In this document: positions 1,276-62,351 of the stretch, in pieces
Layout: each line of letters starts with the position of its first letter
How positions within the stretch are numbered: the stretch's first letter is position 1
Assembly: GCA_902776665.1 (NCBI GenBank)
Contig: CACYQZ010000002.1
Coordinates: 10,329 to 74,328 of the forward strand
Source of the DNA: an uncultured Prevotellaceae bacterium
GTDB taxonomy: Bacteria; Bacteroidota; Bacteroidia; Bacteroidales; Bacteroidaceae
DNA length: 64,000 bases
Direction: 5' to 3'
Program-made: the position numbers and the translations under genes
Notes under the pieces: generated by a model
The model's input: the letters and a program-made list of their open reading frames with translations, nothing else
Told to the model about the DNA's origin: nothing
Database searches by the model: none

Positions 1276-1319
1276 ATCGTTTTAATTTTAAAATTTTACT
1301 TTTTTATTTTTTCATTTTT

Positions 1320-3410
1320 TCAAAATTCCATTCCAATCATCAGCGACACATTCCGCCCGGGTTCGGGCACGTCGATGAGTCGATAGTAACTGGTGTGGTC
1401 GTAGTAGCGACGATTCAGCAGGTTGTCGGCGTGAAGGGTAAGTTTCAACGTCTTGTTGCGCAACGAAAAGTCTTTTCCTGCCGAGAAATTCAGTGTCCAA
1501 TAGCCTGCCGTGGGCTTTTCGGGCGGCACAATTTCGTTTTGCGCGCCTACGACGTGCGCGTTCAACTTGAAAAATCCCTCACCGTGCCAGTCGTACGAAT
1601 ATTTCACGTCGGCATCGACCGACCAAGGCGTCGAAAATGGCAGTGTAAAGCCTTTTTTCTCGCCCGAGCGTTGTCGTGCATAGAGATATTCGCCCTTCAA
1701 CTCGGTTTCCCAATGACGATTCATCCGCCAACTGGCCTGCGCCTCGACGCCGTAGCGAAGCACTCGTGCCTGGGTGTAGTGGTAGAGTTGCAGTCCCTCG
1801 ACGAAGGTGGGCGTGGGGTTCAGGTAGATGTAGTTCGGGAAATAATTGAGATAGGGATCGACTTGGATGCAGAAGATTTCATTGTCCCAATGGATGCCGA
1901 CATCGACCTGATACGACTCCTCGGGATCGAGTTCGGCATTGCCTCGCTCGTAGCGGAAAATGTGGTAGTTCACACCATTGGCACCGAGTTCTTTCGGGAT
2001 GGGAACGCGGAAACTCTTTCCGACATTGGCCTTCACCACCCAGTAGCCCGTGGCGTAGTTGATGCCTGCCGACCACGTGATGCTGTTGAAATGGCGATGA
2101 AGCCGTGCCGAGCGCTGCAAATAGGCCGAATCGGTGTCGGAAATCGGCGTTTGATACCAATCGTGATAACTCTGAATCTTCGTCTGGGCGTGGTCGTAGC
2201 GCATTCCGGCGTTCAGTTTCAGATGTTCGCAGACGGTAAAACGGTCGAAAGCATAGGCTCCGAGGCTCAGCGTCTCGAAATCGGGAATAATAAAACCCCA
2301 TCCACTGCGCCGGTTGTGCTGATATTCGGCACTCGCACCGACGTTCAGTTCGTGACGCTCGCCGAGTTGCTGGCTCAAACTAAGAATCGCCGTCCACGTG
2401 CTTTTGTCGAATCGTCGTTCTAAAGTGCCGTCGGGCGTAGGCATATAGCCGTGGCTGATGGGTTCGGAATGTTCTTCGCGCAGGTTGCGCTGGTAAGCCA
2501 GATTCGCCTTCGCGGTGGTCTTTTCGGTGTGCCAAACGGTATGACTCGTAACTTTCAGATGGTTCACCCACTGATACGGCAGGTCGATGTCGCGCCGCGA
2601 ACGGTCGTAGTCGATGTCGGAAAGTCGCACCTCCAAACCATGGGCATTGGCGAAAAATCCGCTCTTCGAATAACTGTCGGAAATGCGCACATCGGTGTGG
2701 AAATGGTAGCCGGCATAGCCGAACATCACGCTACCGTCGCGCTCCAGACCGGCAGTGTTGCGCAGTCGCTGGTCTTTCAGACGGATGTAGTACGAATAAT
2801 ATTGTATGCTGTCCGTCGGCACGCGATAGTCGGCATAGTCGATGAAAGTGGCGTTGGCACGGTAGAAAAAGCGACCGTGGCGACCGCCGACCTTCGCCGA
2901 AAGGCCGATTTGCTCGTTGTTCGTGCGACCAAACAGTTGCACGGCACTGCTGAACGGCTCCGTCGGCACGTGGTTGGTGTAAAGATTGAGCACGCCGCCG
3001 ATGGCATCGCTACCGTAAAGCAACGCCGCCGGACCTTTGATGACCTCGGCGCGATCGACGGCAAACTGGTCGATTTCCAGTCCGTGGTCGTCGCCCCACT
3101 GCTGTCCCTCGTGCTTGATACCGTCTTCACTGACAGCCATTCGGTTAAAACCGAGTCCGCGAATCGTGGGCTTCGACTGCCCCGACCCGATGCTCATAGC
3201 CTTCACACCCGGAATGCTTTCGAGCGTCTGCATCAGACTGCCGGCGAAATGTTGTTGAAGGTAGTCGTGGCTAACCTGTACTGACGACTGCGATGAACGC
3301 ATCTGATAGTCGCGTTGCCGCTGTCCCTTCACCGTCACGTTTTGAAGCGTTACGGTGGTGTCGGGCGGACTCACGACCGTCAGCATAGCAGCCAAAAATA
3401 AATTGATCAT
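1320..3410 (-). CDS. TonB-dependent outer-membrane receptor, probably for a metal
   Basis: 696 aa; TonB-box-like LQNVTV; plug motifs PGV..IRGLGFNR and EVIKGPAALLYGSDAIGGVLN; C-terminal PGRNVSLMIGMEF ending in Phe. Confidence 0.92.
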   Translation of the reverse strand: MINLFLAAMLTVVSPPDTTVTLQNVTVKGQRQRDYQMRSSQSSVQVSHDYLQQHFAGSLMQTLESIPGVKAMSIGSGQSKPTIRGLGFNRMAVSEDGIKHEGQQWGDDHGLEIDQFAVDRAEVIKGPAALLYGSDAIGGVLNLYTNHVPTEPFSSAVQLFGRTNNEQIGLSAKVGGRHGRFFYRANATFIDYADYRVPTDSIQYYSYYIRLKDQRLRNTAGLERDGSVMFGYAGYHFHTDVRISDSYSKSGFFANAHGLEVRLSDIDYDRSRRDIDLPYQWVNHLKVTSHTVWHTEKTTAKANLAYQRNLREEHSEPISHGYMPTPDGTLERRFDKSTWTAILSLSQQLGERHELNVGASAEYQHNRRSGWGFIIPDFETLSLGAYAFDRFTVCEHLKLNAGMRYDHAQTKIQSYHDWYQTPISDTDSAYLQRSARLHRHFNSITWSAGINYATGYWVVKANVGKSFRVPIPKELGANGVNYHIFRYERGNAELDPEESYQVDVGIHWDNEIFCIQVDPYLNYFPNYIYLNPTPTFVEGLQLYHYTQARVLRYGVEAQASWRMNRHWETELKGEYLYARQRSGEKKGFTLPFSTPWSVDADVKYSYDWHGEGFFKLNAHVVGAQNEIVPPEKPTAGYWTLNFSAGKDFSLRNKTLKLTLHADNLLNRRYYDHTSYYRLIDVPEPGRNVSLMIGMEF

Positions 3411-3458
3411 ACTGAATGTCTATTTGAAAAAACAATAATGAGGTGGAAAATTGATTTT

Positions 3459-3797
3459 TCAAACGACGGGAGGGGCTCTCGGCACGAGAACGCCGCAAAT
3501 TCGGTGGGTTCGATGGTTGATTTGGATGCTGAAAAGCGGTGAAACTCTTCGAAAACAATGGACGATTGCCACAACGGCAGCCAACAGAATCGGCAGCGAG
3601 AGAAATTCGCAGAGCAGACACGGGTGCATCGGCAAGGTCTGTTGTCCGAAATGTCCGCCACAATGGTGATCGACACAGGCTTCGCAACTGTTTTGCGTGC
3701 CCGTCGGAGTTTCATGAACATGGAGCGACGACAAAAGCAGCATTGGCAGAAACACTGCCAACAGCACCCAAGAGGCTATGCGTCTTTTCGTTTCCAT
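3459..3797 (-). CDS. Cys/His-rich membrane leader protein with C-terminal RAPP motif (DUF2946/CruR-like putative arrest peptide)
   Basis: 112 aa: N-terminal hydrophobic helix, HVH, CEACVDHHCGGH, HPCLLC, second hydrophobic stretch, ends PRAPPVV. Stop is 48 nt upstream of the TBDR ATG. Confidence 0.75.
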   Translation of the reverse strand: METKRRIASWVLLAVFLPMLLLSSLHVHETPTGTQNSCEACVDHHCGGHFGQQTLPMHPCLLCEFLSLPILLAAVVAIVHCFRRVSPLFSIQINHRTHRICGVLVPRAPPVV

Positions 3798-3820
3798 GTT
3801 CTTTTTAAATTTTTTCGGCG

Positions 3821-3828
3821 CAAAATTA
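3821..3828 (-). promoter_or_regulatory. -7 element (TAATTTTG) for the leader-TBDR-lipoprotein operon
   Basis: TAnnTTTG 24 nt upstream of the leader ATG; divergent from the mnmG promoter. Confidence 0.6.
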
Positions 3829-3930: not shown

Positions 3931-5889
3931 ATGCTATTCAACTACGACGTCATCATCATCGGAGGCGGTCACGCGGGATGCGAGGCGGCCACCGCTGCGG
4001 CACGCATGGGCGCGAAAACTTGTCTGATTACGATGGACATGAACAAAATTGCGCAAATGTCGTGCAATCCGGCTGTGGGTGGAATCGCTAAAGGCCAGAT
4101 TGTCAGGGAGTTAGATGCACTCGGCGGCGAAATGGGTCGCGTCACCGATGCCACGACTATCCAGTTTCGGATGCTGAATCGGGGCAAGGGGCCGGCAGTG
4201 TGGAGTCCACGAGCGCAGTGCGACCGCGAAAAATTCATCGGAAAATGGCGTGAAACGCTCGATGGAATCGATGGTTTGGACATTTGGCAAGACCAAGTTG
4301 AAGAATTGCTCGTGGAACCTTTTGGTCACGAGAATGGCGACGGTTGTCGCGGCACAGCAGTGGGTGTTCGGACGGTTTGGGGCGTGGAATTTCGCGCGAA
4401 AAGCATTGTTGTCACCGCTGGAACCTTCCTCAACGGCCTGCTACACGTGGGTCGGCGGATGGTGCCAGGCGGTCGGATGGCCGAGCCTGCCGTCACGCGC
4501 TTCACCGAGAGCATCACGCGCTGGGGCATCCGCTCCGACCGAATGAAAACGGGTACGCCCGTGCGCATCGACCGCCGTAGCGTCGATTTCAGCCTACTCG
4601 AAGAACAACCCGGCGAGAATGATTTCCACCAGTTTTCCTATATGAAAAAAAACGCGGTGGAATCGGCAGGAATCGACACTCGCACACTGCCGCAGTTGTC
4701 GTGTTGGCTGTTGAACACCAATGCCCACGTCCACGAAATTCTGCGCACGGGACTCGACGATTCACCTTTATATAATGGGCAGATTCAGAGCATCGGACCG
4801 CGCTATTGTCCGTCGATTGAAACGAAACTCGTCACCTTCCCCGACCGCGACCAGCATCCGCTCTTCCTCGAACCCGAGGGAATTGACACGAATGAGATGT
4901 ATCTAAACGGTTTTTCATCGAGTATGCCGATTGACATTCAACTCGAAGCGTTGCGACAGATTCCGGCACTTCGCGATGTGAAAATCTATCGTCCGGGCTA
5001 TGCCATCGAATACGATTTTTTCGACCCGACACAGCTCTATCACTCGATGGAATCGAAGGTTTTGAGCGGACTTTTTTTTGCTGGACAAGTCAATGGAACG
5101 ACAGGCTACGAAGAGGCCGCCGGACAGGGTTTGATGGCAGGTGTGAACGCCGCCTTGCACAGCCAATCCACCACCCACACTCCACACTCCACACTCCACA
5201 CTTCACAATTCACCCTCGCTCGCGACGAAGCCTACATCGGCGTTCTCATCGACGATTTGGTGACGAAGGGCGTTGATGAACCCTACCGAATGTTCACCTC
5301 GCGTGCCGAATATCGAATTCTTTTGCGTCAAGACGATGCCGACGCCCGATTGACTGAGCGTTCCTACGAACTCGGACTGGCGTTGCGTGAACGATACGAT
5401 TGGTGGTTGGAAAAGAAAGAAAACATCGAAAAAATCGTGCATTTTTGCGAAAATACACCCGTAAAACCTCGCGACATCAACAGTGCGCTAGAAAATCTTG
5501 GCACTACCCCACTCCAATTTGGCTGCAAAATCGCCGATCTCATCGCGCGTCCACAACTATCTATCGCGAAACTCGCTGAGGTGATTCCCGAACTGAAAAC
5601 CGCGATACTTTCGCCGAAAAATCGACGCGAAGAAATCGCCGAAGCTGCTGAAATCAAAATCAAATACAAAGGTTATATCGAGCGCGAAAAACTCGTGGCA
5701 GAAAAGATGCACCGATTGGAAAACATCCGCATCAAAGACCGATTTAAGTATGCCGAACTCCACGAAATTTCCACCGAGGCACGACAAAAACTCGAACGAA
5801 TCAACCCTGAGACGCTGGCACAAGCGAGTCGCATTCCAGGCGTGTCGCCGTCGGACATCAACGTGCTACTGGTGCTTCTGGGACGTTAG
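3931..5889 (+). CDS. mnmG: tRNA uridine-5-carboxymethylaminomethyl modification enzyme MnmG/GidA
   Basis: VIIIGGGHAGCEAA FAD motif; MSCNPAVGGIAKG; GPRYCPSIE; FAGQVNGTTGYEEAAGQG. Confidence 0.98.
   Translation: MLFNYDVIIIGGGHAGCEAATAAARMGAKTCLITMDMNKIAQMSCNPAVGGIAKGQIVRELDALGGEMGRVTDATTIQFRMLNRGKGPAVWSPRAQCDREKFIGKWRETLDGIDGLDIWQDQVEELLVEPFGHENGDGCRGTAVGVRTVWGVEFRAKSIVVTAGTFLNGLLHVGRRMVPGGRMAEPAVTRFTESITRWGIRSDRMKTGTPVRIDRRSVDFSLLEEQPGENDFHQFSYMKKNAVESAGIDTRTLPQLSCWLLNTNAHVHEILRTGLDDSPLYNGQIQSIGPRYCPSIETKLVTFPDRDQHPLFLEPEGIDTNEMYLNGFSSSMPIDIQLEALRQIPALRDVKIYRPGYAIEYDFFDPTQLYHSMESKVLSGLFFAGQVNGTTGYEEAAGQGLMAGVNAALHSQSTTHTPHSTLHTSQFTLARDEAYIGVLIDDLVTKGVDEPYRMFTSRAEYRILLRQDDADARLTERSYELGLALRERYDWWLEKKENIEKIVHFCENTPVKPRDINSALENLGTTPLQFGCKIADLIARPQLSIAKLAEVIPELKTAILSPKNRREEIAEAAEIKIKYKGYIEREKLVAEKMHRLENIRIKDRFKYAELHEISTEARQKLERINPETLAQASRIPGVSPSDINVLLVLLGR
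5164..5212 (+). repeat. Heptamer tandem repeat (CACTCCA-type x7) inside mnmG
   Basis: caatcca ccaccca cactcca cactcca cactcca cacttca caattca; encodes QSTTHTPHSTLHTSQF. Confidence 0.9.
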
Positions 5890-5910: not shown

Positions 5911-5945
5911 TGGGGAGTAAGGAGTTGGGGAGTAAAGGAGTAAAA
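5911..5945 (+). repeat. Purine-rich GGAGTAA-type short tandem repeat between mnmG and apt
   Basis: tggggagtaa ggagttgggg agtaaaggag taaaa. Confidence 0.7.
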
Positions 5946-5977
5946 GAAAAAATAGTAAAATATAAATTGAAAAAAGT

Positions 5978-18686: not shown

Positions 18687-21335
18687 ATGGCTACGAAAGA
18701 TAAAGGCTTGACGCCGATGATGAAACAGTTTTTCGCTTTCAAGGAGAAATATCCCGACGCGGTGCTGCTGTTTCGCTGCGGCGACTTCTACGAGACCTAC
18801 GGCGAGGATGCTGTCGTGGCATCGCGGATTCTGGGTATCACGCTCACGCGGCGCAACAACGGCGGAAATTCTGGCGACACAGAGATGGCGGGCTTTCCCC
18901 ATCACGCACTCGACACCTACCTGCCGAAACTGATTCGCGCAGGGCGGCGCGTAGCCATTTGCGACCAACTCGAAGACCCGAAACTGACGAAAACGCTCGT
19001 GAAACGCGGCGTGACCGAACTGGTGACGCCGGGTGTGGCGATGAGCGACAACGTGCTGAACTACAAGGAAAACAACTTTCTGGCTGCCGTGCATTTCGGG
19101 AAAACGGCCTGTGGTGTGGCGTTTCTCGACATTTCCACCGGCGAATTTCTGACGGGCGAGGGTGCCTACGACTATGTCGATAAACTTCTGGGCAATTTCC
19201 AACCGAAGGAAGTGCTTTATTGTCGCGAAAAAAAGGCCGATTTCGAGCGATATTTCGGGGCGTCGGGTAGGGCAGTGGCCTCGTTCTCGACTTTCGAACT
19301 CGACGACTGGGTTTTCACCGAGCAAACCGCCAACCAGAAACTGCTGAAGCACTTCGGAACGCACTCGTTGAAGGGCTTCGGCGTCGAACAACTGCGCAAC
19401 GGCGTGATTGCGGCTGGAGCAGTGATGCAATATCTCGAAATGACGCAGCACACGTCGGTCGGCCACATCACCCACCTACAACGCATCGAGGAAGATCAAT
19501 ACGTGCGACTCGACAAATTCACGATTCGCTCGCTCGAACTCGTACAACCGATGCAAGACGGCGGCATCTCGCTTTTCAACGTCATCGACCGCACGACTAC
19601 ACCGATGGGAGGCCGAATGTTGCACCGTTGGCTGGTGTTTCCATTGAAAGAAGTCACGCCCATCAACCATCGGCTCGACGTGGTGGATTATTTCTTCCGC
19701 GAACCAAATTTCCGCGAACTCATCGACCAACAACTGCAGCGCATCGGCGACCTCGAACGCATCATTTCGAAAGTGGCCGTCGGGCGCGTGTCGCCGCGTG
19801 AGGTCGTGCAACTGAAAAATGCACTGTTGGCCATCGAACCCATCAAAAAAGCGCTGGAACCCAAGGGTGGCTTGCCTGCTGCACTGACCGACATCGGCAA
19901 TCGCCTCAACCTCTGCGAAACCATCCGCGACCGCATCGCCCGCGAAATCCAGCCCGACCCACCGCAACTGGTGTCGAAAGGCAACGTCATCGCACGCGGT
20001 TTCAACAGCGAACTCGACGAACTGCGCAACATTTCGTCGAACGGACGCAGTTATCTTCTTCAGATTCAGGAACGCGAGAGCCAACAAACGGGCATTCCGT
20101 CGCTGAAAGTCGGCTACAACAACGTTTTCGGCTATTATCTCGAAGTCAGAAACACCTATAAAGACAAAGTTCCGCAGGAATGGATTCGCAAGCAGACGCT
20201 GGCGCAGGCCGAGCGCTACATCACGCCCGAACTGAAGGAATACGAGGAGAAAATCCTCGGTGCCGACGAGAAAATTCTCGCGATGGAAGAGCGACTGTTC
20301 AACGAACTGGTGGTGGCGATGCAGGATTTCATTCCGCAGATTCAGGTGAATGCCGCGCTCGTCGCCCGACTCGACTGTCTGCTGTCGTTTGCGAAGATTG
20401 CCGAGGAAAACCGCTATGTGCGACCCGTCATCAGCGACGACGACGTGCTCGACATCCGACAGGGTCGCCATCCCGTCATCGAACAGCAACTGCCACTCGG
20501 CGAACACTACGTTCCCAACGACATCGAACTCGACACCGAACAACAGCAAATCATCATCATCACGGGTCCAAATATGGCGGGTAAATCGGCTCTTTTGCGC
20601 CAAACAGCCCTCATCACGATTCTCGCCCAGATGGGCTCTTTCGTGCCTGCCGAGAGCGCGAAAATCGGTCTTGTCGATAAGATTTTCACGCGTGTCGGTG
20701 CCAGCGACAACATTTCACTCGGCGAATCGACGTTTATGGTCGAAATGACCGAGGCCGCCGACATTCTCAACAATGTCACACCGCGCTCGCTCGTGCTGTT
20801 CGACGAACTCGGACGCGGCACCTCGACCTACGACGGCATCAGCATCGCGTGGGCCATCGTCGAGCACCTGCACGAACACCCGAAAGCGCGTGCGCGAACG
20901 CTTTTCGCCACCCACTACCACGAACTCAACGAGATGGAACGGTCGTTCCGCCGCATCAAAAACTACAATGTGTCGGTGAAAGAGGTCGATGGAAAGGTGA
21001 TTTTCCTGCGCAAACTCGAACGTGGCGGCTCGGAACACTCGTTTGGTATCCACGTGGCCGACATCGCCGGAATGCCGAAGTCGATTGTGAAGCGGGCCAA
21101 CGTGATTCTCGGGGAATTGGAGGGAAAGTCGAAGGGAACTCAACACCCATCACCTATCACCCACCACCCGTCGTCCGACACCCGCGAGGGAATGCAACTC
21201 TCATTCTTCCAACTCGACGACCCCGTACTCAGCCAGATTCGCGACGAAATCCTCGGTCTCGACATCAACAACCTCACACCCGTCGAAGCTCTCAACAAAC
21301 TCAACGACATCAAGAAAATCGTGGGAGGGAAATAA
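18687..21335 (+). CDS. mutS: DNA mismatch repair protein MutS
   Basis: [15 protein letters not shown], Walker [27 protein letters not shown]-terminal QLSFF clamp-binding motif. Confidence 0.98.
21137..21185 (+). repeat. Degenerate CACCCAT-type heptamer repeat inside mutS
   Basis: aactcaa cacccat cacctat cacccac cacccgt cgtccga cacccgc; encodes [16 protein letters not shown]. Confidence 0.8.
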
Positions 21336-21454: not shown

Positions 21455-23476
21455 TCAAAGTTTCCGAACCTCCAAATTCGTCACGCGACTCTTGAAATTG
21501 CCTGCTTTTTCGAGCGGGAACACGAGCGTGGCGACGTAGAACATTCGACGCGTGGGCACATAGACGGTCGTGTGGTAGGGCGCGTCGGGCATCGTGTTCA
21601 GCGGTTCGCCAACGGAATAGGCATCGCGCTTGCGAAGGGTTTCGCGGTGGCGATTATTGACGAAAAGACGGGTTTCTGCGTTGGTTCCCTCGACTCGGAT
21701 GCTGACACGACCGGTTTCGGGCAGTTTGTAGTTGAATTTGTTGAGATAGCCGTCGCGACTGAACGCCAAGCGACCCGTTTCGGGGTCGCCGAGGTAGAAC
21801 GTGGCATTTTCGCCAGTGGTCAGAATCGTGCCATTGGCCTCGGTTGCGCAGTCGATGTCGAAAGAAACGGCGTAGTCGTAGCCGGCTTCCATCATTGAAT
21901 TTTGAATTTTGAATTTTGAATTTTGAATTTTTAGATTCAGTGGCTGACCAGCCTCCACAACATCGAGTTTTACGGGGGTTTCAGGCAGTCTGCCGAGTTC
22001 ATTCACCGCCGGCCCTTCGCTGAGTTCGAGTCGTTTTTTGTCGAATGTTTCATAGGGCAACGATGTCAATTGGCCCGTCCAACACTTCGTCGAGAAGGTG
22101 TGCATCGCGGGATAGAGGCGATGGTGGATGTCTTTCGTGGAAATGCCGTTGCCGTAGTGGTCGTTCCAGACGGCAAACATACCGCCTTCCAACTGCGGAT
22201 GTTGCTCGGCGACAGGCTTTCCGAAGAGCGTCGCAGGCGTCCACGACTCGTAAAGCCATTTGCAATTCAGGTAGTCGTAATAATAGCCGGCGGCAGGCAC
22301 AATGTAGTTGTAGCGGTCGGGAATGGAAAGAATGCGATAGCCGAGTTTCATCATCGAGTCGGGCTCGGCGTAATCGGTTGACCAACAAGCCATTAGCACG
22401 TTTTCGTGGCGAATGGGCGTTTTTCCCTTTGCGTGGGTGAGCGAACCCCAGACCATCGGCTGTTTGCCATATTTTTCGATGAGGGCGAGGTAATAATCGG
22501 TGTAGGCACGGAACTGCTCGACCACCTCTTTGTCGCGGTTGGAATATTCGTCGGTGCCGATATTCACACGCGGACCACGGAACACAGGGTTCTTACCCGT
22601 GAGATATTCGGCGAAAAGACCGTCCATAAACGTGTAGATTTCGGGATTCGAGAGGTTGAAATGGTCCATTCCATACTCTTTCGAGCCGAGTTCGGGACGA
22701 TATTGCGTAAAGGCGAGAACGTGCGCCGGTGCGTCGATTTCGGGGATGATTTCCACGTACAACGACTCGGCGAGTTTCTGCAATTCGATGAATTCGGCCT
22801 TCGTATAGTGACCGTCTTTGGCGGCGAGACCGGGATAGGTGTCGCACTCGAGGCGGAACGCGGCTGAAGTCTTCATCCAGTCGTTCTCGAAATACTGCGG
22901 AAAACCGTTGTCGTTCAGGTGCAGTTGCAGCGTGTTCATCTTATAATACGCCATCACTTTCACGAGGTTGCGCAGGTAATGCATCGGCACGAATTTACGG
23001 CCTACATCGAGCATAAAACCGCGCATTTTATATTGCGGAATGTCGGAAATTGTTCCTTTCGGGAGTGTGGAGTGTGTTTCGAGGATTTGCAGCAGCGTGC
23101 GCGTGGCCCAGAAAGCGCCGATTTCGGCAGGCGACGCCACTTCGACAATGTCGCCAATCGTCATCTGATAACCCTCCGACGGCATCGTGTCGAGTTTTTT
23201 CAGCGTCAAAACGATGTCGCCTTTCTTGGCTTTTCCACCGACGAGGGTCAGTTTTTGGCCAAACATCACTTCATAGTCGGCGGCAAACTGCTTGGCGACG
23301 GTTTGCAGCGCTTTCGACTTGACAACGACGCGACCGCTGAGCGTGGTCGAGCCCTGTCCACCCGTCCATTGCGTAATTTCGGGCACCGTAAAAGGCTTTT
23401 CGTTGGTTGCCGACTGTGAAAAAACTTGCGTGACAGCCCAAAAACAGGCCATTGTTAAGAATACGATTCGTTTCAT
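21455..23476 (-). CDS. Glycoside hydrolase family 20 (beta-N-acetylhexosaminidase-like)
   Basis: Signal peptide; RGFMLDVGRK, LHLND, IIPEIDAPAH, catalytic NIGTDE, GGMFAVWND. Confidence 0.9.
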   Translation of the reverse strand: MKRIVFLTMACFWAVTQVFSQSATNEKPFTVPEITQWTGGQGSTTLSGRVVVKSKALQTVAKQFAADYEVMFGQKLTLVGGKAKKGDIVLTLKKLDTMPSEGYQMTIGDIVEVASPAEIGAFWATRTLLQILETHSTLPKGTISDIPQYKMRGFMLDVGRKFVPMHYLRNLVKVMAYYKMNTLQLHLNDNGFPQYFENDWMKTSAAFRLECDTYPGLAAKDGHYTKAEFIELQKLAESLYVEIIPEIDAPAHVLAFTQYRPELGSKEYGMDHFNLSNPEIYTFMDGLFAEYLTGKNPVFRGPRVNIGTDEYSNRDKEVVEQFRAYTDYYLALIEKYGKQPMVWGSLTHAKGKTPIRHENVLMACWSTDYAEPDSMMKLGYRILSIPDRYNYIVPAAGYYYDYLNCKWLYESWTPATLFGKPVAEQHPQLEGGMFAVWNDHYGNGISTKDIHHRLYPAMHTFSTKCWTGQLTSLPYETFDKKRLELSEGPAVNELGRLPETPVKLDVVEAGQPLNLKIQNSKFKIQNSMMEAGYDYAVSFDIDCATEANGTILTTGENATFYLGDPETGRLAFSRDGYLNKFNYKLPETGRVSIRVEGTNAETRLFVNNRHRETLRKRDAYSVGEPLNTMPDAPYHTTVYVPTRRMFYVATLVFPLEKAGNFKSRVTNLEVRKL
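21897..21931 (-). repeat. Five perfect copies of AAAATTC inside the GH20 gene
   Basis: Plus strand (GAATTTT)x5; encodes KIQNSKFKIQNS. Confidence 0.92.
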
Positions 23477-23514: not shown

Positions 23515-24837
23515 TTATTTCACCAATTCGCCGATGAGCGTGGCGGCAGTGCTGCTCGTGATTCTGACGCGGACAATTTCGGAAGGATGATGGCCGCCCT
23601 TGTCGAAAACAACCATTTTTCCCTGTTCCGTGCGACCGCAAAGCTGCTGTCGCGAACGCTTCGAATAGCCCTCGACCAACACGTCGAACTCCTTGCCGAC
23701 ATCGCGCAGGTTTGACTGTGCCGAAAGGTCGTTTTGCAACTGAATCACCTCGTTCAACCGCCTCAATTTCACCTCTTCAGGCACATCGTCGGGCAGGTGT
23801 TTCGCCGCATAGGTGCCCGGTCGTTCGGAATATTTGAACATAAAAGCCGAGTCGAAATGCACCTCGCGCATCAGCGAAAGTGTCTGCTCATGGTCGTCCT
23901 CGGTTTCGCTGTGATAGCCCACGAAAACATCGGTCGAGAGGCCACAGTCGGGCACGATTCGACGAATCGCCGCCACGCGCTCCAAATACCATTCGCGGGT
24001 GTATTTCCGATTCATCAGTTCGAGAATTCGGTTCGAGCCCGACTGCACGGGCAGGTGAATCTGCTTGCAGATGTTCGGTTCCTCGGCTATGACATGCAGC
24101 GTGGCATCGCTCATATCTTTCGGATGGCTCGTCGTGAAGCGCACGCGCAGTTCGGGCGCAGTTCGGGCGACAAGCCGAAGCAGTTCGGGGAATCGAATAT
24201 CTCCTCGTTCCTCGTTCCTCGCACAATAAGAATTCACATTTTGACCCAACAGCGTCACCTCCTTGAAACCTTTTTCCTTCAAGTCGCGCACCTCGCGCAA
24301 AATGCTCTCCACATCGCGACTGCGCTCACGACCTCGCGTGTAGGGCACAATGCAATAATGGCAGAAATTGTTGCAGCCGCGCATGATGCTGACATAGCCC
24401 GAAATGCGGTTGCCACTGATGCGCTGCGGCACGATGTCGCGGTAGGTTTCGCTCGTCGAAAGGTCGATGTCGATGGCTTTCTGACCCGCTTCGACCTGCG
24501 CAATGAGGTCGGGCAGTCGTAGATAGGCGTCGGGACCAGCCACGAGGTCGGCGTGGTGGTTTTCAAGCAGGTCTTCTTTCACGCGCTCGGCCATACAACC
24601 CAAAACGCCGACTATCAACGAACCTTTTTTCTTCCGCGTCGCATTCAGTTCGGCCAGTCGATGGTAAATCTTGTTTTCGGCATTTTCGCGCACCGAACAA
24701 GTGTTCAAAAACACCGCATCGGCCTCATCGGCATTGTCGCAAGGCTCGTAGCCCGCCATTTGCATCACCGACGCAACCACCTCAGAATCAGCCACATTCA
24801 TCTGGCAGCCGTAGGTTTCGATATATAATTTTTTCAT
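23515..24837 (-). CDS. miaB: tRNA-2-methylthio-N6-dimethylallyladenosine synthase MiaB
   Basis: ETYGCQMN, LNTCSVRE, GVLGCMA, radical-SAM CNNFCHYC, C-terminal TRAM domain. Confidence 0.97.
   Translation of the reverse strand: MKKLYIETYGCQMNVADSEVVASVMQMAGYEPCDNADEADAVFLNTCSVRENAENKIYHRLAELNATRKKKGSLIVGVLGCMAERVKEDLLENHHADLVAGPDAYLRLPDLIAQVEAGQKAIDIDLSTSETYRDIVPQRISGNRISGYVSIMRGCNNFCHYCIVPYTRGRERSRDVESILREVRDLKEKGFKEVTLLGQNVNSYCARNEERGDIRFPELLRLVARTAPELRVRFTTSHPKDMSDATLHVIAEEPNICKQIHLPVQSGSNRILELMNRKYTREWYLERVAAIRRIVPDCGLSTDVFVGYHSETEDDHEQTLSLMREVHFDSAFMFKYSERPGTYAAKHLPDDVPEEVKLRRLNEVIQLQNDLSAQSNLRDVGKEFDVLVEGYSKRSRQQLCGRTEQGKMVVFDKGGHHPSEIVRVRITSSTAATLIGELVK
24201..24221 (-). repeat. Short CGAGGAA-type heptamer repeat (x3) inside miaB
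   Basis: Coding strand cgaggaa cgaggaa cgaggag; encodes RNEERG. Confidence 0.6.
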
Positions 24838-29162: not shown

Positions 29163-29169
29163 AGTATCA

Positions 29170-35775: not shown

Positions 35776-35777
35776 CA

Positions 35778-35833
35778 TCTTCAATCTTCAATCTTCAATG
35801 TTCAATCTTCAATCTTCAATCTTCAATGTTTAA
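35778..35833 (-). repeat. TTGAAGA heptamer tract (x8) between yitT and rdgB
   Basis: Plus strand tcttcaa x3, tgttcaa, tcttcaa x3, tgtttaa. Confidence 0.92.
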
Positions 35834-36728: not shown

Positions 36729-36747
36729 AGTTTCTCAATTTTTTCTC

Positions 36748-36768
36748 ACTTCACACTTCACACTTCAC
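36748..36768 (-). repeat. TGAAGTG heptamer x3 between leuS and yitT
   Basis: Plus strand cacttca x3. Confidence 0.8.
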
Positions 36769-39617: not shown

Positions 39618-39658
39618 AAAAAGCAAAATTTTAGAAAAAAATTCAAATAATTTAGGTG

Positions 39659-39666: not shown

Positions 39667-39728
39667 CAAAAAAAATGCAGAAACATGGATAATTTCCTCT
39701 AAAAAGATGGAATTCGTAAATTTTTTCG

Positions 39729-41946: not shown

Positions 41947-42771
41947 ATGAAAAAAATTCCTCTATACCTTCTGACTTTCATCCTATTATCCTGCTCCGAC
42001 ATCGCCGAATCGGAACGATTCATCATTGTGGACCGAGGTGAGGTGCAGCGTGCCGTGCTCATCGAGGATTTCACGGGTCAAGCCTGTGTGAATTGTCCCG
42101 CGGCCAGCGATGTGATTCACGAATTGCAGCGAACACTCGGCGAGGAAAACATCATTCCCGTCGCCATCCACAGCGGACCCTTCGCCCACAAGCGTTCGAA
42201 CATGAGTGCGGCGTTTCTGAGCGACCTCGGAACAGCCGAGGGCGACGAATTTTTCACCCACTGGGGCATCGAGGCACAGCCTGGCGTGAAAATCAATCGT
42301 GGAACACCGATTTACGACCCACAGCAATATGCTGCCGCCGTGACTGCCGAAATGGCGAAGATTTCGCCCGTCGTTTTCGAGAAAATGCTGGCGAATAGTG
42401 CCGATGGCAAGACGATTGATGTCACCATTCAACCCTCGACCCCCATTGAGAATATCGACGCACGGTTGCAGGTGTGGATCATCGAAGACAACATCAATGC
42501 CGAGGGTGGCAACAGCAACTATGTGCAACTGATGGGCGACGGTTCGCCCAACGAAAACTATGTTCACCACCACGTTTTCCGCGCCTCGATGACCAGCGAT
42601 CTCTATGGCGAAGCCTATCGTCAGGGTGCAGGCGAGAAAAAACAGGTGGAATTCAACTATTCGAAGGCCGTCGAAAGCCATTGGAAGGTCGAGAATCTGT
42701 CGATTGTCGCCTTCCTTTGGAACGAAAAAGACGGTGTTCTCTGTGTAAGTCGAACAAAGGTAAAAAGGTAA
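41947..42771 (+). CDS. Omp28-family lipoprotein (thioredoxin-like CxxC)
   Basis: Lipobox LLSC; VLIEDFTGQACVNCP; AIHSG; YVHHHVFR. Start reassigned to MKKIPL. Confidence 0.85.
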   Translation: MKKIPLYLLTFILLSCSDIAESERFIIVDRGEVQRAVLIEDFTGQACVNCPAASDVIHELQRTLGEENIIPVAIHSGPFAHKRSNMSAAFLSDLGTAEGDEFFTHWGIEAQPGVKINRGTPIYDPQQYAAAVTAEMAKISPVVFEKMLANSADGKTIDVTIQPSTPIENIDARLQVWIIEDNINAEGGNSNYVQLMGDGSPNENYVHHHVFRASMTSDLYGEAYRQGAGEKKQVEFNYSKAVESHWKVENLSIVAFLWNEKDGVLCVSRTKVKR

Positions 42772-42797
42772 AAAAGTGAAAAGGTAAAAAGTCAAAT
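42756..42797 (+). repeat. AAAAGGT(A/G) octamer tract at the gene end
   Basis: aaaggtaa aaaggtaa aaaagtga aaaggtaa aaagtcaa; similar tracts at 43447-43483 and 45374-45407. Confidence 0.75.
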
Positions 42798-42813: not shown

Positions 42814-43464
42814 ATGAAAAAAATTTTTACTTCCATTCTGATGTTGCTTTTCGCAACAAATTTCGCCCTCGCAGACGAAGATTTTCCAGTTCAGTTCGTC
42901 GATAAAGACGGAAAAGTAGTGGCCGACGGTGCCACGGTGAATGTCGCAGAAGGCGAAAAAGACGTTTTCGGCGACCTCTTGTTTAAAACGGGACTGTTTG
43001 TGACGAATGCCTCTGAAGACGATGTTTACGTAGGAATCGACTACGAAATCAAGTCCATTCCCAACGGAGCATTCCAGATTTGCTTCCCGCAGAACTGCGT
43101 GCAGAAAGACGCTGCGGGCAAGTATTCCACACCGCAAGGTCCGCTGGTGGCCGCCGACAAAAAGGACATTCAGGCCGAATGGATTCCCGACGAGGATGGT
43201 TTTGGAACGTGCACGGTGGAATTGCAGGTGAACCTCTACATCTACAACGCACTGACGAAGGTTTACACCCTCGACGAAGAAGGTCCGAGAATCACGGTGA
43301 ACCTGATTTACAAAGACCCGGCATCGGTTGATAACCTTGAAAACGACGAAGCGAAAGAAACGGCACGCTACAACACCGCCGGACAGCGCATCAACGAAGG
43401 TCAGAAGGGTGTGAACATCGTGAAATACGAAAATGGAAAGACCGTTAAAAAGGTGAAAAGGTGA
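42814..43464 (+). CDS. Secreted protein with Prevotella-type T9SS C-terminal domain
   Basis: Signal peptide; Ig-like core with CFPQNC; tail ARYNTAGQRINEGQKGVNIVKYENGKT. Confidence 0.75.
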   Translation: MKKIFTSILMLLFATNFALADEDFPVQFVDKDGKVVADGATVNVAEGEKDVFGDLLFKTGLFVTNASEDDVYVGIDYEIKSIPNGAFQICFPQNCVQKDAAGKYSTPQGPLVAADKKDIQAEWIPDEDGFGTCTVELQVNLYIYNALTKVYTLDEEGPRITVNLIYKDPASVDNLENDEAKETARYNTAGQRINEGQKGVNIVKYENGKTVKKVKR

Positions 43465-43487
43465 AAAAGTAAAAAGGTGAAAAAACG

Positions 43488-45389
43488 ATGATGAAAAGAT
43501 TATTCTCAGCCATTGTTGCTCTGACTTTTGTCACAGCACTTTCGGCACAAATGATTCAGAAAAATCCTGCCGAAAAATTCGGTCAGCAGAGTGTGGAATC
43601 CGCGCAAAAAACTCCGATGCTCGCAGGAGAAGACAATATTGTCTATTGGAGTTATTTCAACGGTAGCGCCAGTAGTTGGAACTCCATCGGAATTGGTCAG
43701 GCCGCCACATTGAGCGTGGCTGTGAAACTGCCCGATGTTCTTGCCGGAGGAACGCTGAAAAGCATCAATATTCCCATCAAGTCCTCTTCGATGACAGAGG
43801 TCACGGCATGGGTTCGAACCAACCTCGACGGTGAAAACCTCGTATTGGTGAATGTTCCCAGCAATTCGTTTGTGCCAGGTTCCTATGTGAAGGCACCGCT
43901 CACCGAAGACTTCACGATTCCCGCCACCGATGTCTATGTTGGCTACACGTTCACTTCTACGGCACAATTTCCCGTTGCCGTGGGCGCTGGTTCTCAGCCC
44001 AATTCCCTCTTCCTGAAAATCAACGACGACGGTTGGGGCGACTACTCGAACCAAGGTTTTGGCATTTCACCACTGCAACTGTCCATCGCCAACTTGAATT
44101 TGTCTGAATACAACGTGAAACTCAGGGATTTGGAATCCTTGATACTGTCTCCCAACAAACCTTTCAAGGCTCGTCTTACGGTCGATAGTAATGGTAAAAA
44201 TGCCATTAAAACCATTGATTACACCATCGAAATCGACGGAAAGAAGGAACAGAAGCAATTCACGTTCAAAACCCCGATTCCAGCCGGACTGAATCAAAGC
44301 GGAATCGCCGAAGTGGAGGGCACCAGCCCGTCTGACCACAAATATTATACCGTCAAAGTGACGCTCGACAAGGTGAACGGTCAGAACTACGACAAAACGG
44401 CCTCTGTTTCTGCCGAATTTATCAATATTTTGCGCAATGCGCCCCGTCGCACGGTGGTCGAGGAATACACGGGAACTGGCTGCGGCTGGTGTACGCGTGG
44501 ATGGGTCGGCATGGAATTCATGAAGGAGCATTATCAAGACCAGTTTGTCGGCATCGCTTTTCACCAATACAACAACAACGACCCGATGTATGTGGCGAAC
44601 TATTTTTCAAGGACATCGCTGGGCCTCGATGGTGCTCCGAGTTGCAGCATGAACCGCAAAATGGTGATGGATCCCTTCGAAGGTAGCGGCGCTGGAATTT
44701 GGCAAGACTTGCTGTTGATGAATGAAGAGCCTCCCCTTGTCGATGTCAGTGCCACAGGCGTTTGGAACGACACCAAGACAGCCGTCGATGTCACGGCGAA
44801 CATTGAACCGCTGACCGACGGACTCGGTTTCACGGTGGCATACGTGCTCACAGCCGACCAACTTTCGGGCACGACTGCCGAATGGCGACAGTCGAACTAT
44901 TATTACCAGTATTCATCGAGTTCGCTGCCGACGAATCCCGATTTGGCACAATTCGGAAGTGGTGGCAAGAATGGCCAGTCGTCGGTTTACCTGACCTTCA
45001 ACGACGTGATGATTGGCAGTTCCTACAATTCGATGGGAAGAAATCTCGCACCGGTCATCGATGGTTCCACCAATGCCGTTGCAGGAACGGTTTACGAAGG
45101 AAAATATTCGGTGAAAATGCCGACGAAAACGGTGTTGAAAAACGCCATCAAAATCGACCAAGTTTTCGCTAATGTGCTGATTATCAGTAATAAAACAGGA
45201 GAGATTCTGAATGCTGTTCGTGTGAAGGTGGGCGAAGACACCAACGCCATCGACGATGCGAATGTTGCCGAGGACGTTCACGAGGTGGCTTGCTACAGCC
45301 TCGACGGTCGTCGCCTCGAAGCACCGCAAAAGGGTGTGAACATTGTGAAATTCAGCAATGGAAAAACCATGAAAAAGGTGAAAAAGTAA
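43488..45389 (+). CDS. Secreted Omp28-domain protein with T9SS C-terminal domain
   Basis: Signal peptide; VVEEYTGTGCGWCTRG; tail YSLDGRRLEAPQKGVNIVKFSNGKT. Confidence 0.8.
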   Translation: MMKRLFSAIVALTFVTALSAQMIQKNPAEKFGQQSVESAQKTPMLAGEDNIVYWSYFNGSASSWNSIGIGQAATLSVAVKLPDVLAGGTLKSINIPIKSSSMTEVTAWVRTNLDGENLVLVNVPSNSFVPGSYVKAPLTEDFTIPATDVYVGYTFTSTAQFPVAVGAGSQPNSLFLKINDDGWGDYSNQGFGISPLQLSIANLNLSEYNVKLRDLESLILSPNKPFKARLTVDSNGKNAIKTIDYTIEIDGKKEQKQFTFKTPIPAGLNQSGIAEVEGTSPSDHKYYTVKVTLDKVNGQNYDKTASVSAEFINILRNAPRRTVVEEYTGTGCGWCTRGWVGMEFMKEHYQDQFVGIAFHQYNNNDPMYVANYFSRTSLGLDGAPSCSMNRKMVMDPFEGSGAGIWQDLLLMNEEPPLVDVSATGVWNDTKTAVDVTANIEPLTDGLGFTVAYVLTADQLSGTTAEWRQSNYYYQYSSSSLPTNPDLAQFGSGGKNGQSSVYLTFNDVMIGSSYNSMGRNLAPVIDGSTNAVAGTVYEGKYSVKMPTKTVLKNAIKIDQVFANVLIISNKTGEILNAVRVKVGEDTNAIDDANVAEDVHEVACYSLDGRRLEAPQKGVNIVKFSNGKTMKKVKK

Positions 45390-45414
45390 AAAGGTAAAAA
45401 AGTAAAAATCAATT

Positions 45415-49653: not shown

Positions 49654-49737
49654 AGTGAAGAGTGAAAAGTGTAGAGTGTAGAGTGAAGAATCTAATTTAT
49701 AAATTCAAAATTCAAAAATCAACATTCAAAATTTAAG
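49654..49737 (+). repeat. Twelve in-phase heptads that switch from AGTGAAG-type to ATTCAAA-type units
   Basis: AGTGAAG AGTGAAA AGTGTAG AGTGTAG AGTGAAG AATCTAA TTTATAA ATTCAAA ATTCAAA AATCAAC ATTCAAA ATTTAAG. Confidence 0.85.
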
Positions 49738-50836: not shown

Positions 50837-51543
50837 TTGTAAAAAAAATCCAGAATCAGCATGGGTTGCGGGCCGAAGAAGTGCCGCAACTCATGCTCAC
50901 CCACGGCGTGGAATACCAAAAAGTGGCGTGCGTGAACTGGCCGAAGGAATTTCCTTATGCGCCGAAGATGGAGGTGGCACTGGCGCACACGGGCGACAGC
51001 CTGCTCTTGCACTATCGTGTCGAGGAAGATTGCATCCGTGCCGCTGCCGAGGCCGATGGCGGTCGCGTTTGGGAAGATTCGTGCTGCGAAATATTCCTGC
51101 AACCCTCATCACCCATCACCCATCACCCAACACCCAACACTCATCACCCAACACCTTATTTTAATATAGAATGCAACTGCGCCGGCACGTTGCTCATCGG
51201 CAAGGGCGAAGACCGTCACGACCGTCAGCCCGCCACAGCCGCGACGTTGCAGTCGGCCAACCGTTGGTCGTCGCTGATGAAAACGGCTGTTTCGGGTGAA
51301 AATGGTCGCTATACGATTCCCTTGAAAAACGGAAAATTCACGTGGCACATGGCACTCGTCGTACCTGCCACCGCCCTGTTCGACAGCGGCATCACCGATT
51401 TTTCGGGTCAAACCCTGCGCGGCAACATCTACAAATGCGGCGATTGCCTCACCACGCCCCATTTCCTGTCGCTGTTCCCCATCGACACGCCGCAGCCCGA
51501 CTTCCATCGACCCGAATTTTTCGGGGAATTAACATTTGAATAA
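50833..51543 (+). CDS. Carbohydrate-binding family 9-like protein
   Basis: VNWPKEFPYAP, VWEDSCCEIF, NIYKCGD, PDFHRPEFF. Confidence 0.82.
   Translation: MIVKKIQNQHGLRAEEVPQLMLTHGVEYQKVACVNWPKEFPYAPKMEVALAHTGDSLLLHYRVEEDCIRAAAEADGGRVWEDSCCEIFLQPSSPITHHPTPNTHHPTPYFNIECNCAGTLLIGKGEDRHDRQPATAATLQSANRWSSLMKTAVSGENGRYTIPLKNGKFTWHMALVVPATALFDSGITDFSGQTLRGNIYKCGDCLTTPHFLSLFPIDTPQPDFHRPEFFGELTFE
51110..51158 (+). repeat. CACCCA(T/A) heptamer tract (x7) inside the CBM9-like gene
   Basis: cacccat cacccat cacccaa cacccaa cactcat cacccaa cacctta; encodes SPITHHPTPNTHHPTP. Confidence 0.9.
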
Positions 51544-58844: not shown

Positions 58845-58850
58845 GACAAA

Positions 58851-61621: not shown

Positions 61622-61670
61622 AATTCGGAAAAATTTCCTCGATTTTTTTGCATTTTCGACAAAAAATCAT

Positions 61671-61678
61671 TATTTTTG
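61671..61678 (+). promoter_or_regulatory. -7 element (TATTTTTG) for sod
   Basis: TAnnTTTG upstream of the ATG at 61720. Confidence 0.55.
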
Positions 61679-61719
61679 CGACGATAATGGGATGTTTATT
61701 CACCTTAAACAAGAGAAAA

Positions 61720-62310
61720 ATGGCAAAAAAATTTGAGTTGATGTCGCTGCCCTATGCGCTCGACGCGCTGGAGCCGGTGATAAGCAAGCAGACGCTGGAG
61801 TTCCACCACGGAAAGCATCTGGCGGCGTATGTTAACAACCTCAACGGCCTGCTGCCCGACAGCGGTTTCGAGGAGGCTGAGTTGGTGGAAATCGTCTGCA
61901 AGGCCGAGGGTGGAATCCTCAACAATGCCGGGCAGATTCTGAACCACGAGTTGTATTTTGGGCAATTCTGCGCTCCGAAAGCCGAGAATCAGCCCGTCGG
62001 AAAGGTCGCTGAGGCCATCGTGCGCGATTTTGGCTCGTTCGAGGCGTTCAAAGACGAATTCCAGAAAAAAGGTGCCACGCTGTTCGGCAGCGGATGGGTT
62101 TGGCTGTCGGCTGACAACGACGGCAAACTAGTCGTCACGCAAGAGCCGAATGCCGCCAATCCCGTGCAAAAAGGACTGACACCGCTGCTGACCTTCGACG
62201 TTTGGGAGCACGCCTACTACCTCGATTTCCAAAACCGTCGCCCCGACCATCTCGCCGCCCTTTGGCAGATTGTCAATTGGAACGTGGTCGAAAAGCGCTA
62301 TGGCAAATAA
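61720..62310 (+). CDS. sod: Fe/Mn superoxide dismutase
   Basis: LPYALDALEP, FHHGKH, NHELY, FGSGWVWL, DVWEHAYY. Start set at MAKKF. Confidence 0.97.
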   Translation: MAKKFELMSLPYALDALEPVISKQTLEFHHGKHLAAYVNNLNGLLPDSGFEEAELVEIVCKAEGGILNNAGQILNHELYFGQFCAPKAENQPVGKVAEAIVRDFGSFEAFKDEFQKKGATLFGSGWVWLSADNDGKLVVTQEPNAANPVQKGLTPLLTFDVWEHAYYLDFQNRRPDHLAALWQIVNWNVVEKRYGK

Positions 62311-62351
62311 GGACGATTTCGAAAAAAATGAAAAAATGAAGAATTGAAAAA

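Follow-up and report, generated by a model that had tools for sequence, protein, structure and literature searches.

Short tandem arrays of heptanucleotides are known from cyanobacteria, where they are called short tandemly repeated repetitive (STRR) sequences, from Xanthomonas, from the Beggiatoaceae, and from a few Bacteroidetes. STRR arrays have reportedly been on record since the work of Mazel in 1990, and heptamers with small dispersed repeats embedded in them are said to have been described there and by Elhai and colleagues in 2008, as cited in PMC3116915, a paper on REPINs. As late as 2015, heptamer arrays were still described as lacking any evident means of spreading. Here, we describe arrays of this class in a stretch of 64,000 nucleotides (the window: positions 10,329 to 74,328 of contig CACYQZ010000002.1 in assembly GCA_902776665.1, or C2:10329-74328 in our numbering) and in the whole of the genome to which it belongs, that of an uncultured rumen Prevotellaceae bacterium (G000). 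This genome carries about 500 short arrays with units of 7 to 8 bases, which makes it a very dense case of a known repeat class. We consider it likely that replication slippage, copying between loci, and selection together shape the arrays. New in this work are the reduction of an apparent orientation rule to selection and ascertainment of open reading frames (ORFs), sequence evidence for the copying of arrays between unlinked sites, and a replicated, statistically strong link to one small gene family, with reverse transcriptases (RTs) and Y1 transposases excluded as correlates.

The long simple repeats with units of 5 to 11 nt (LSSR5-11; Mrazek, Guo and Shah 2007) come mostly from large genomes according to the accounts given in PMC4679880 and PMC4692102. 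By these accounts, they resemble the arrays described here in being dominated by heptamers, genome-specific, patchy, variable in length by unit steps, and enriched outside genes. In contrast, the present genome is small (2.3 Mb) and host-associated, 47% of its arrays lie in genes, including essential ones, and there is evidence for copying between loci. Its arrays show the features of heptameric LSSRs, with head-to-tail units in at least 3 copies, an excess led by period 7, and whole-unit length polymorphism (28/154 arrays). The TAACTGA repeats of Beggiatoaceae, cyanobacteria, and five Bacteroidetes, for which no spreading mechanism is known (MacGregor 2015, PMC4679880), likewise form more than 100 dispersed arrays of 2 to 6 units, mostly a few nt upstream of starts. 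However, they consist of a single unit, whereas about 70 are found here, many of them in in-frame coding arrays, and the 60 commonest canonical units of this genome do not include TAACTGA. The GGGAATC and GGGGA(C/T)T heptamers of Xanthomonas and Nostoc occupy about 180 loci per genome with about 4 units each, lie between co-oriented genes near starts and stops, and differ widely in length and sequence between close species; their preference for 4 units has been ascribed to G-quadruplex formation (Rehm et al. 2015, PMC4692102). In the present genome, in contrast, the same length mode occurs in A/T-rich units that are unable to form quadruplexes.

Cyanobacterial STRRs had been named as the known analogue in an earlier note on the window, which was made from the sequence alone. 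The likeness holds for the very small hairpins within or beside the heptamers, which belong here to families of the forms CGGC-N3-GCCG and CCTCCCCC-N4-GGGGGAGG. It does not extend to membership in the STRR class itself: the phylum is another one (the host is a Prevotellaceae bacterium), the commonest units are AACACCC, AACATTG, AAATTGT, and AGAGTTG, and many of the insertions are in coding sequence (CDS). Our literature search turned up no report of such arrays from Prevotella, and heptamers are not mentioned in Lin and Kussell 2012.

The genome comprises 2.34 Mb in 52 contigs (51% G+C, 93% complete). Its LeuS is 77-78% identical to those of rumen Prevotella and Prevotellaceae metagenome-assembled genomes, and its genus contains at least 300 species genomes. 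Genes were called with a self-trained caller based on codon usage, which yielded 1760 genes (88% coding) with approximate start sites. Arrays were called with Tandem Repeats Finder (TRF; score of at least 38) and by scans for exact runs, with a Markov-3 shuffled genome as the null. TRF recovered the approximately 20 short tracts of period 7 (some 8) that had been noticed in the window and, genome-wide, found 367 arrays of period 7 against none in the shuffled genome and 118 of period 8 against 3, with no excess at periods 5 and 6 (0-2 arrays). Exact repeats of at least 3 copies gave the same picture: 101 against 0 at period 7, 14 against 0 at period 8, and chance levels at periods 5, 6, and 9. 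The excess of period 7 on which the earlier note had made its proposal depend is thus present throughout the genome, accompanied by an enrichment of period 8. In total, arrays of the 2 periods cover 13.8 and 4.0 kb, respectively.

Of the 367 period-7 arrays, 174 lie within called genes (128 genes), 97 are intergenic, and 96 overlap a gene end, so that 53% are found in or bordering the non-coding 12% of the genome. The 70 unit types are used very unevenly, with 50 loci for AACACCC and 34, 29, and 23 for the units that follow. TTG is present in 56% of array units, compared with 21% of random heptamers. The median length of solo arrays is 4.7 units and is alike in the CDS, intergenic, and edge classes; arrays with G3-containing units (63) have a median of 5.3 units, and the remaining 304 show the same mode of 4-5 units.

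As a proxy for array density in other genomes, we counted matches to 4 successive TTGN4 heptamers (TTGN4 x4), a pattern that detects only TTG-phased heptamers and gave 279 matches in this genome compared with 2 after shuffling. Among 300 genomes of the genus, 140 had at least 20 matches (about 2 are expected) and about 60 had at least 100, while about 40% were at chance level; the array-rich set includes genomes assembled into 1-4 contigs. Across the phylum, about 10% of 400 high-quality genomes had at least 50 matches, and in matches per megabase the present genome ranks close to the top. Period-7 arrays averaged 2.5 per 100 kb in 1.2 Mb of metagenome contigs sampled from diverse Bacteroidales, compared with 15.7 here. 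The trait is thus common yet patchy, which argues for a heritable factor that is gained and lost and agrees with the literature on long simple sequence repeats (SSRs).

The closest genome found (G286, hereafter the sister genome) was assembled independently, and 1.26 Mb of it was compared. Its leuS DNA is 89% identical and array flanks share a mean identity of 95.8%; it is as array-rich as G000 and shares the leading units. A query of metagenome contigs with LeuS found no near-identical strain, the best match having 77% amino acid identity. Among 154 arrays that could be mapped, 57 had the same length in the sister genome, 28 differed by a multiple of 7, 18 differed otherwise, and 51, or about one third, were absent. 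The 57 arrays identical at orthologous sites, together with arrays of the same kind in finished genomes of the genus (1-4 contigs), exclude the assembly or sequencing artefact that the earlier note had allowed for. Within CDS, 12 of 16 length differences were multiples of 3 (8 of 21 nt, and single ones of 42, 12, 24, and -9 nt), compared with 7/30 elsewhere, indicating that slippage is filtered by the reading frame; the 4 frame-breaking differences include a single event in lgt that is counted twice.

Unit-step differences of this kind are what ordinary microsatellite slippage would produce by itself, if arrays arose by chance local duplication and grew in place by polymerase slippage. Heptamers are also the commonest long SSRs in many prokaryotes according to the literature. 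Period 7 is said, after Mrazek in 2007, to be favoured by polymerase geometry. Several observations do not fit such an origin, however. One unit can be found at up to 50 loci, and 13 pairs of loci carry identical imperfect arrays of 28-47 nt, where 0.1 pairs are expected when unit order is shuffled. When contig-end overlaps and a single local duplication are set apart, at least 7 of these pairs lie on different contigs, with flank identity at random level. Array-less sites in the sister genome lack a seed unit, as in the leuS loops, where unrelated sequence was replaced. Two-copy heptamers are not in excess over chance; the excess sets in at about 2.5 copies (about 17 nt), leaving no reservoir of proto-arrays. 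Finally, the phases at which arrays start and end are non-uniform within families (p 1e-3 to 5e-9), as in AACATTG, where 17/34 start at one phase (p=5e-9). Slippage as the sole process is therefore disfavoured, and we regard it as improbable.

The earlier note had proposed a seeding or copying process beyond local slippage, and the same observations support it. Rather than growing only in place, arrays appear to have been copied between unlinked sites, overwriting one another within about 4% divergence. A clear instance is the pair C14:50916 and C6:39377 (contig and position), which have 47 nt in common. Both orthologous sites in the sister genome hold other arrays, and the shared sequence was therefore installed in the G000 lineage. 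Arrays are also clustered, with 40 neighbouring pairs no more than 50 nt apart, mostly of unlike units. A local clustering of identical units, hinted at by 3 arrays in leuS, proved weak (24 adjacent pairs compared with 17 expected, p about 0.01-0.05). Shared flanks of same-unit arrays amounted to contig-end overlaps, one local duplication of 4 kb, and adjoining arrays of other families.

Pooling both directions of the comparison gave 94 lineage-specific arrays. At the opposite site we found a different or degenerate heptamer array in 25 cases, an array of another period in 11, a GC-hairpin element in 8, unrelated sequence in 40, and an empty site in 10. None of the 10 clean empty sites showed a target-site duplication. 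Array sites thus resemble hypervariable cassettes rather than places where a transposon has inserted, and the suggestion that the arrays are remnants of a repeat-flanked mobile cassette with target duplications is not supported.

The wider possibility that arrays are footprints or miniatures of a classical mobile element, spread by a transposase or RT in the manner of miniature inverted-repeat elements, retro-elements, or telomerase-like addition, fares little better, and we consider it highly improbable. It would account for dispersed short sequences and for the small hairpins within or beside arrays, and G000 does contain one Y1 gene resembling those of RAYT transposases, with hairpins of the repetitive extragenic palindromic (REP) type. 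However, the REP sequence of this gene (GCCCYGAAAGGGC), present in fewer than 10 copies, bears no relation to the arrays, target-site duplications are lacking, and the flanks of same-unit arrays are unrelated. The RT family PF00078 is absent from G000 and its sister and occurs in 8/16 array-rich and 9/16 array-poor genomes. An association with Y1 transposases (PF01797, IS200/RAYT) in a first sample (12/16 rich versus 2/16 poor) failed to replicate in a second (17/30 versus 12/30, with strong matches in 2 versus 7); pooled, strong matches occur in 9/46 rich and 7/46 poor genomes.

Rickettsia palindromic elements can sit in frame in conserved proteins, and REPINs depend on a domesticated Y1 transposase. 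The arrays resemble both in being short dispersed sequences, and the Rickettsia elements also in lying in frame inside conserved proteins; they differ in lacking a palindrome, defined ends, and a reproducible Y1 link. The RAYT-like gene itself (165 amino acids; C7:1660-2460, locus L237) has hairpins CGCCCCGAAGGGGCAA (2 copies) upstream and TTGCCCTTTCAGGGCG/CGCCCTGAAAGGGCAA (4 copies) downstream. It sits between long ORFs that we take, without a family search, to be the S and R genes of a type I restriction-modification locus.

According to the account that we favour, slippage changes copy number in single-unit steps, as the length differences show. Any step survives between genes, and inside genes almost only steps of 3 units (21 nt) do. 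Arrays are in addition copied to unlinked loci, overwriting existing arrays or short inserts. The likely route would be ectopic gene conversion or template switching among arrays, which would serve as microhomology. Such copying could lead to the few dominant unit families per genome and to rapid cassette replacement at permissive sites. Selection keeps stop-free strands in genes, where they encode peptides rich in T, S, P, N, Q, and H in variable loops; stop-bearing arrays at the 3' ends of genes become the stop codon, and orientation elsewhere is nearly free.

Several points weigh against this account. Ectopic conversion alone does not account for why period 7 is favoured, and it leaves unexplained how arrays first reached virgin sites; in the leuS loops, for example, 12-27 nt of unrelated sequence were replaced. 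Amplification of higher-order units could, in principle, also give rise to shared imperfect arrays. For slippage rates and conversion direction we rely on the single species pair of G000 and its sister, and the simple gene caller makes some of the CDS and edge labels, as well as start sites, approximate.

The earlier note had also proposed a rule by which stop codons set the orientation of arrays. Within CDS, the sense strand is pyrimidine-rich in 135/174 arrays, while between tandem genes the purine-rich strand is the mRNA strand in 103/138; the bias is real, at about 70-75%, but falls short of the "nearly always" that had been claimed. Where only one strand of the unit contains a stop, the stop lies on the sense strand in 72 non-coding arrays versus 30, and in CDS on the antisense strand in 74 versus 12. 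These 12 are interrupted arrays or doubtful gene calls, and no stops were found in translated CDS arrays. The in-gene filter, a case of purifying selection, therefore stands, as already stated for TAACTGA repeats (MacGregor 2015, PMC4679880). Orientation tracks the gene strand in both GC-skew classes and does not follow the GC-skew strand, which speaks against an explanation by replication strand, although GC skew is a weak guide in this genome.

The intergenic half of the rule is mostly a matter of ascertainment. Where neighbouring genes are co-oriented, arrays that include the stop of the upstream gene are in the stop-bearing orientation in 50 cases versus 6, whereas those clear of it are split 39 versus 27 (p=0.18). 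The bias arises because a stop-bearing array at a 3' end terminates the ORF, while the opposite orientation is read through and counted as coding. Arrays supply the stop codon of about 56 genes. The orientation rule is thus correct but largely trivial, reflecting for the most part selection and ORF ascertainment rather than the mechanism. Not all of the bias involves stops, however. Units that are stop-free on both strands are also biased in CDS (sense strand pyrimidine-rich in 62 versus purine-rich in 23, p=3e-5), so that peptide tolerance or descent from a TTGAGTG-type family must also play a part. In its 44 CDS copies, the commonest unit has AACACCC on the sense strand and encodes N-T-Q-H-P-T-P; its complement would encode G-C-W-V-L-G-V. 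Peptides encoded by CDS arrays are rich in T, S, P, N, Q, and H, and selection may act at the peptide level.

A start codon follows within 300 nt downstream of 149/193 non-coding arrays, the median distance being 12 nt. TAACTGA and GGGAATC repeats are similarly placed, and this raises the question of whether arrays are kept for a function, as elements of translation or the 5' untranslated region, as three-frame stop "insulators" in operons, or as G-quadruplex regulators. In support, (GGGTGTT)n conforms to a G3N4 quadruplex motif, and composite arrays tend to have AAATTGT-type units beside the start codon. However, nearness to start codons is expected, since the spacers of this compact genome are very short and many arrays fill the whole spacer (e.g., 35777-35836; positions without a contig name are those of the window). 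Without the stop-supplying arrays, hardly any orientation bias is left, and the difference of one third of the arrays at 96% identity argues against a conserved function. The mode of 4-5 units is also found in non-G units, and G-rich arrays are mostly on the template strand of genes. Maintenance for function is therefore unlikely.

No enzyme that could generate the arrays had been seen in the window, and for the window this holds. However, a candidate partner gene lies 4.6 kb past its end (C2:78941-79258), and the copy number of its family tracks the trait. The gene encodes a member of PF05635, a family of pentameric four-helix-bundle proteins that includes the protein of the 23S rRNA intervening sequence (IVS) and the Avd protein of diversity-generating retroelements (DGRs). 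Within the genus, PF05635 scored above the cut-off in 39/40 array-rich and 16/40 array-poor genomes (Fisher 1.4e-8), with mean copy numbers of 4.8 and 1.1 (Mann-Whitney 2e-9). Across the phylum, it was present in 25/25 array-rich genomes from 20 families and in 11/25 array-poor ones (Fisher 9.5e-6), at means of 5.9 and 0.5 copies (Mann-Whitney 4e-9). In family f40, among genomes of similar size, rich genomes had 4 and 8 copies and poor ones 0-2. The genomes behind these statistics are not phylogenetically independent, and the array-rich ones are on average about 20% larger. Of the 3 families profiled, PF05635 tracks array richness in genus and phylum alike, while RT and Y1 transposases do not.

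Four PF05635 genes are found in G000, all above the gathering score (E 2e-41 to 2e-25). Each is preceded, just 5' of its start, by a purine-rich array of about 4-5 units of 7-9 nt, the reverse complement of which follows just 3' of its stop. The 4 cassettes are the following:

C2:78893-79333 (window-equivalent 68565-69005, outside the window)
C3:98888-99387
C47:4593-5059
C24:35759-36202

Inverted array arms of 31-55 nt, 74-97% complementary, also flank 5 of 6 PF05635 genes sampled across the genus. Two of the 4 cassettes could be placed in the sister genome and both are absent there, one site holding 2 GC-hairpin elements and the other 20 nt. The 23S rRNA IVS and DGR Avd genes are similar in that a small four-helix-bundle ORF lies within inverted repeats able to form a long stem; the present cassettes differ in lying between protein genes, in having tandem 7-9-nt arrays as arms, and in lacking an RT partner.

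The link between arrays and PF05635 cassettes holds both statistically, as a correlation, and in the local architecture, and is compatible with either causal direction. One reading, which we put forward tentatively and hold to be doubtful but possible, is that PF05635 proteins act in trans as the partner of the arrays. The unit of array, ORF, and inverted array would then be an autonomous cassette, and solo arrays, among them the in-frame ones of leuS, mutS, mnmG, and lgt, and ORF-less hairpins would be non-autonomous forms that are spread or stabilised by the protein. A pentamer reading about 4-5 units could set the typical array length, consistent with the median of 4.7 units for solo arrays in every location class. 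The replicated association and copy numbers, the bracketing of the genes by inverted arrays, the absence of 2 cassettes from the sister genome, and the failure of the control families RT and Y1 to track the trait all speak for this reading. Against it, the evidence is correlative and comes from related genomes of unequal size, 16/40 array-poor genomes carry the gene, and the proxy counts only TTG-phased heptamers. In addition, unit families other than those of the arms dominate among solo arrays, just 6 inverted array pairs were found among about 480 arrays in G000, there is no RT to pair with an Avd-like protein, and causality may be reversed, with arrays serving as landing pads for cassettes. 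Of the readings that the data allow, this partnership would be the most consequential: if true, it would represent a new class of protein-dependent, RT-independent micro-mobile DNA across bacterial phyla. Since cultured strains and genetic tools are available for the genus (PMC8634118), the link is testable at the bench.

Separately, 3 hairpin modules without an ORF were observed, consisting of (AAAAGGTA)n, a loop of 45-85 nt, and (TTTTACCT)n, at C11:20304-20448, C2:7977-8098, and C30:21750-21850.

Within the window, genes were identified with NCBIfam and Pfam, and the names given in the earlier note (mnmG, mutS, miaB, leuS, lgt, GH20, and CBM9) were correct:

3931-5889: mnmG
11960-14722: polA
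18687-21335: mutS
21455-23476, minus strand: GH20 gene
23515-24837, minus strand: miaB
36771-39686, minus strand: leuS
46518-47426: lgt
50833-51543: CBM9 gene

The arrays of the window, from TRF and the gene map, are as follows:

1294..1320, minus strand: period-8 TTTTATTT x3.4, in the spacer of 2 minus-strand genes
5175..5207, plus strand: CCACACT x4.7 in mnmG, in frame, at about amino acids 416-426; unit stop-free on both strands
5911..5960, plus strand: GGAGTAAA-type 8-mer array (15-mer super-unit) just 3' of the mnmG stop; the PF05635 cassette at C47:4593 has this unit family in its upstream arm
21144..21169, plus strand: CACCCAT x3.7 in mutS, at about amino acids 820-828; TGA on the antisense strand
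21895..21931, minus strand: TTGAATT x5.3 (sense AATTCAA) in the GH20 gene, past the catalytic domain, at about amino acids 516-528
24202..24221, minus strand: TCCTCGT x2.9 (sense ACGAGGA, a stop-free CGA variant) in miaB
29169..29256, strand not assigned: 2 adjoining intergenic period-8 arrays, AAAAATGA x4.4 and TCAATTCT x4.1
30328..30352, plus strand: TAAGGAG x3.4, supplying the stop codon of a DUF4254 gene at its 3' end
35777..35836, minus strand: ATCTTCA x8.6 (mRNA strand TGAAGAT), filling the spacer from a YitT-family gene to a Ham1 gene; the sister genome has one unit fewer and other unit variants
36743..36768, minus strand: TTCACAC x3.7 in the spacer of leuS and the YitT gene; one unit more in the sister genome
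37013..37044, minus strand: leuS array 3, sense CCCAACA, a 10-residue peptide
37491..37520, minus strand: leuS array 2, a 13-amino acid insertion ahead of KMSKS
38763..38795, minus strand: leuS array 1, a 12-residue peptide
42756..42796, plus strand: period-8 AAAGGTAA x4.5, directly upstream of a plus-strand gene
43448..43483, plus strand: period-8 AAAAGGTG x4.5, covering a gene's stop and the spacer up to the following gene
45372..45408, plus strand: period-8/16 AAAAAGGT/AAAAAAGT over a gene junction; length differs by 12 nt from the sister genome
47154..47184, plus strand: CGAGGAA x4.4 in lgt, a stop-free CGA variant; the same in the sister genome
47188..47219, plus strand: AACTCTC x4.6 in lgt
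49654..49733, plus strand: composite of AGTGAAG x5.1 and then AAATTCA x4.7, filling the spacer from a PAP2 gene to an APH gene
51107..51155, plus strand: CATCACC/CAACACC x7 in the CBM9 protein, at about amino acids 92-108; 21 nt fewer in the sister genome
56519..56553, plus strand: TTGTTAA and AATTGAA arrays in a 29-nt spacer; a AAAAGGTT-type array at the site in the sister genome
60356..60375, plus strand: TTCCTCC x2.9, a weak array near the N-terminus of a histidine-phosphatase-family gene
62323..62361, plus strand: period-8 AAAAAATG x4.9, extending into the called start of the next gene

Arrays of this kind matter for annotation and protein evolution, as they add 6-18 residues to loops of essential enzymes, supply stop codons, break assemblies, and can create frameshift alleles. 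The 3 leuS arrays are in-frame insertions into variable loops, and none of the relatives examined (at least 15) has them. Array 3 stands in place of a GGKG found in the sister genome and all other relatives. At two of the sites, unrelated sequence of 16 nt (array 3) and 27 nt in the sister genome is replaced by 34 and 48 nt, respectively, so that these are not clean insertions. Array 1 represents a net gain of 21 nt, and the site of array 2 holds an unrelated 30-nt insert of the GC-hairpin type in the sister genome. Another genome of the set (G144, locus L085) has a 22-amino acid insertion, NLPCLGEANEGQKAPLNRGDGG, at a LeuS loop that holds a heptamer array in G000. The loop accepts unrelated inserts in several species.

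The AACTCTC array in lgt is shorter by 2 units (14 nt) in the sister genome (L088:4756-5445, on its contig C25), where the ORF ends inside the array at residue 229, compared with 302 amino acids in G000. The 230 nt downstream are about 99% identical between the 2 genomes. For this essential gene, the short form may reflect a frameshift allele, a variant within the population, or a choice made during assembly. In the phase-variable contingency loci of host-adapted pathogens, which act as on/off switches of surface or host-interaction genes, an SSR with a unit length not divisible by 3 can likewise switch the frame of a gene, and this allele is the one such case; in contrast to those loci, the arrays lie at loops of housekeeping genes, the frame is kept in 12/16 CDS differences, and no enrichment in surface genes, for which no test was made, is apparent.

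Two families of small hairpins were observed alongside the arrays. The first is about 33-36 nt long and consists of the hairpin CCTCCCCC-N4-GGGGGAGG followed by GGAGGGGGC. It has 18 copies in G000, 12 of them within called genes (C2:146209, C5:78520, C6:36664 and 39288, C9:6911, C12:12114, C21:17550 and 17602, C23:6521 and 8260, and others). It is commoner in the sister genome, whose LeuS contains 3 in-frame copies (L087:15448-15943, peptide APLSSPEGDTNV), and several copies adjoin heptamer arrays or share a site with an array of the sister genome. The second, a GC hairpin of 13-15 nt with the form TCGGC-N3-GCCGA, has about 10 copies embedded between AATTCAA-type heptamer arrays (C6:38205, C10:11516, 15909, and 50053, C12:19556, C13:26213, C16:46369, and C39:8311). 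These modules are present or absent as wholes between the 2 genomes.

Heptamer arrays also appear to break the assembly. Some contig ends of G000 lie in arrays that overlap arrays at other ends (C10:2-26 with C8:18-42, and C11:75-199 with C6:77476-77545). Finally, polA contains a 17-nt (8+9) repeat, TGAAAATCC GAAAAATC x2.3, at 13162-13201, and MnmG, MutS, and PolA are each about 30 amino acids longer than their family profiles, which points to inserts of this kind in many of the housekeeping proteins encoded here.

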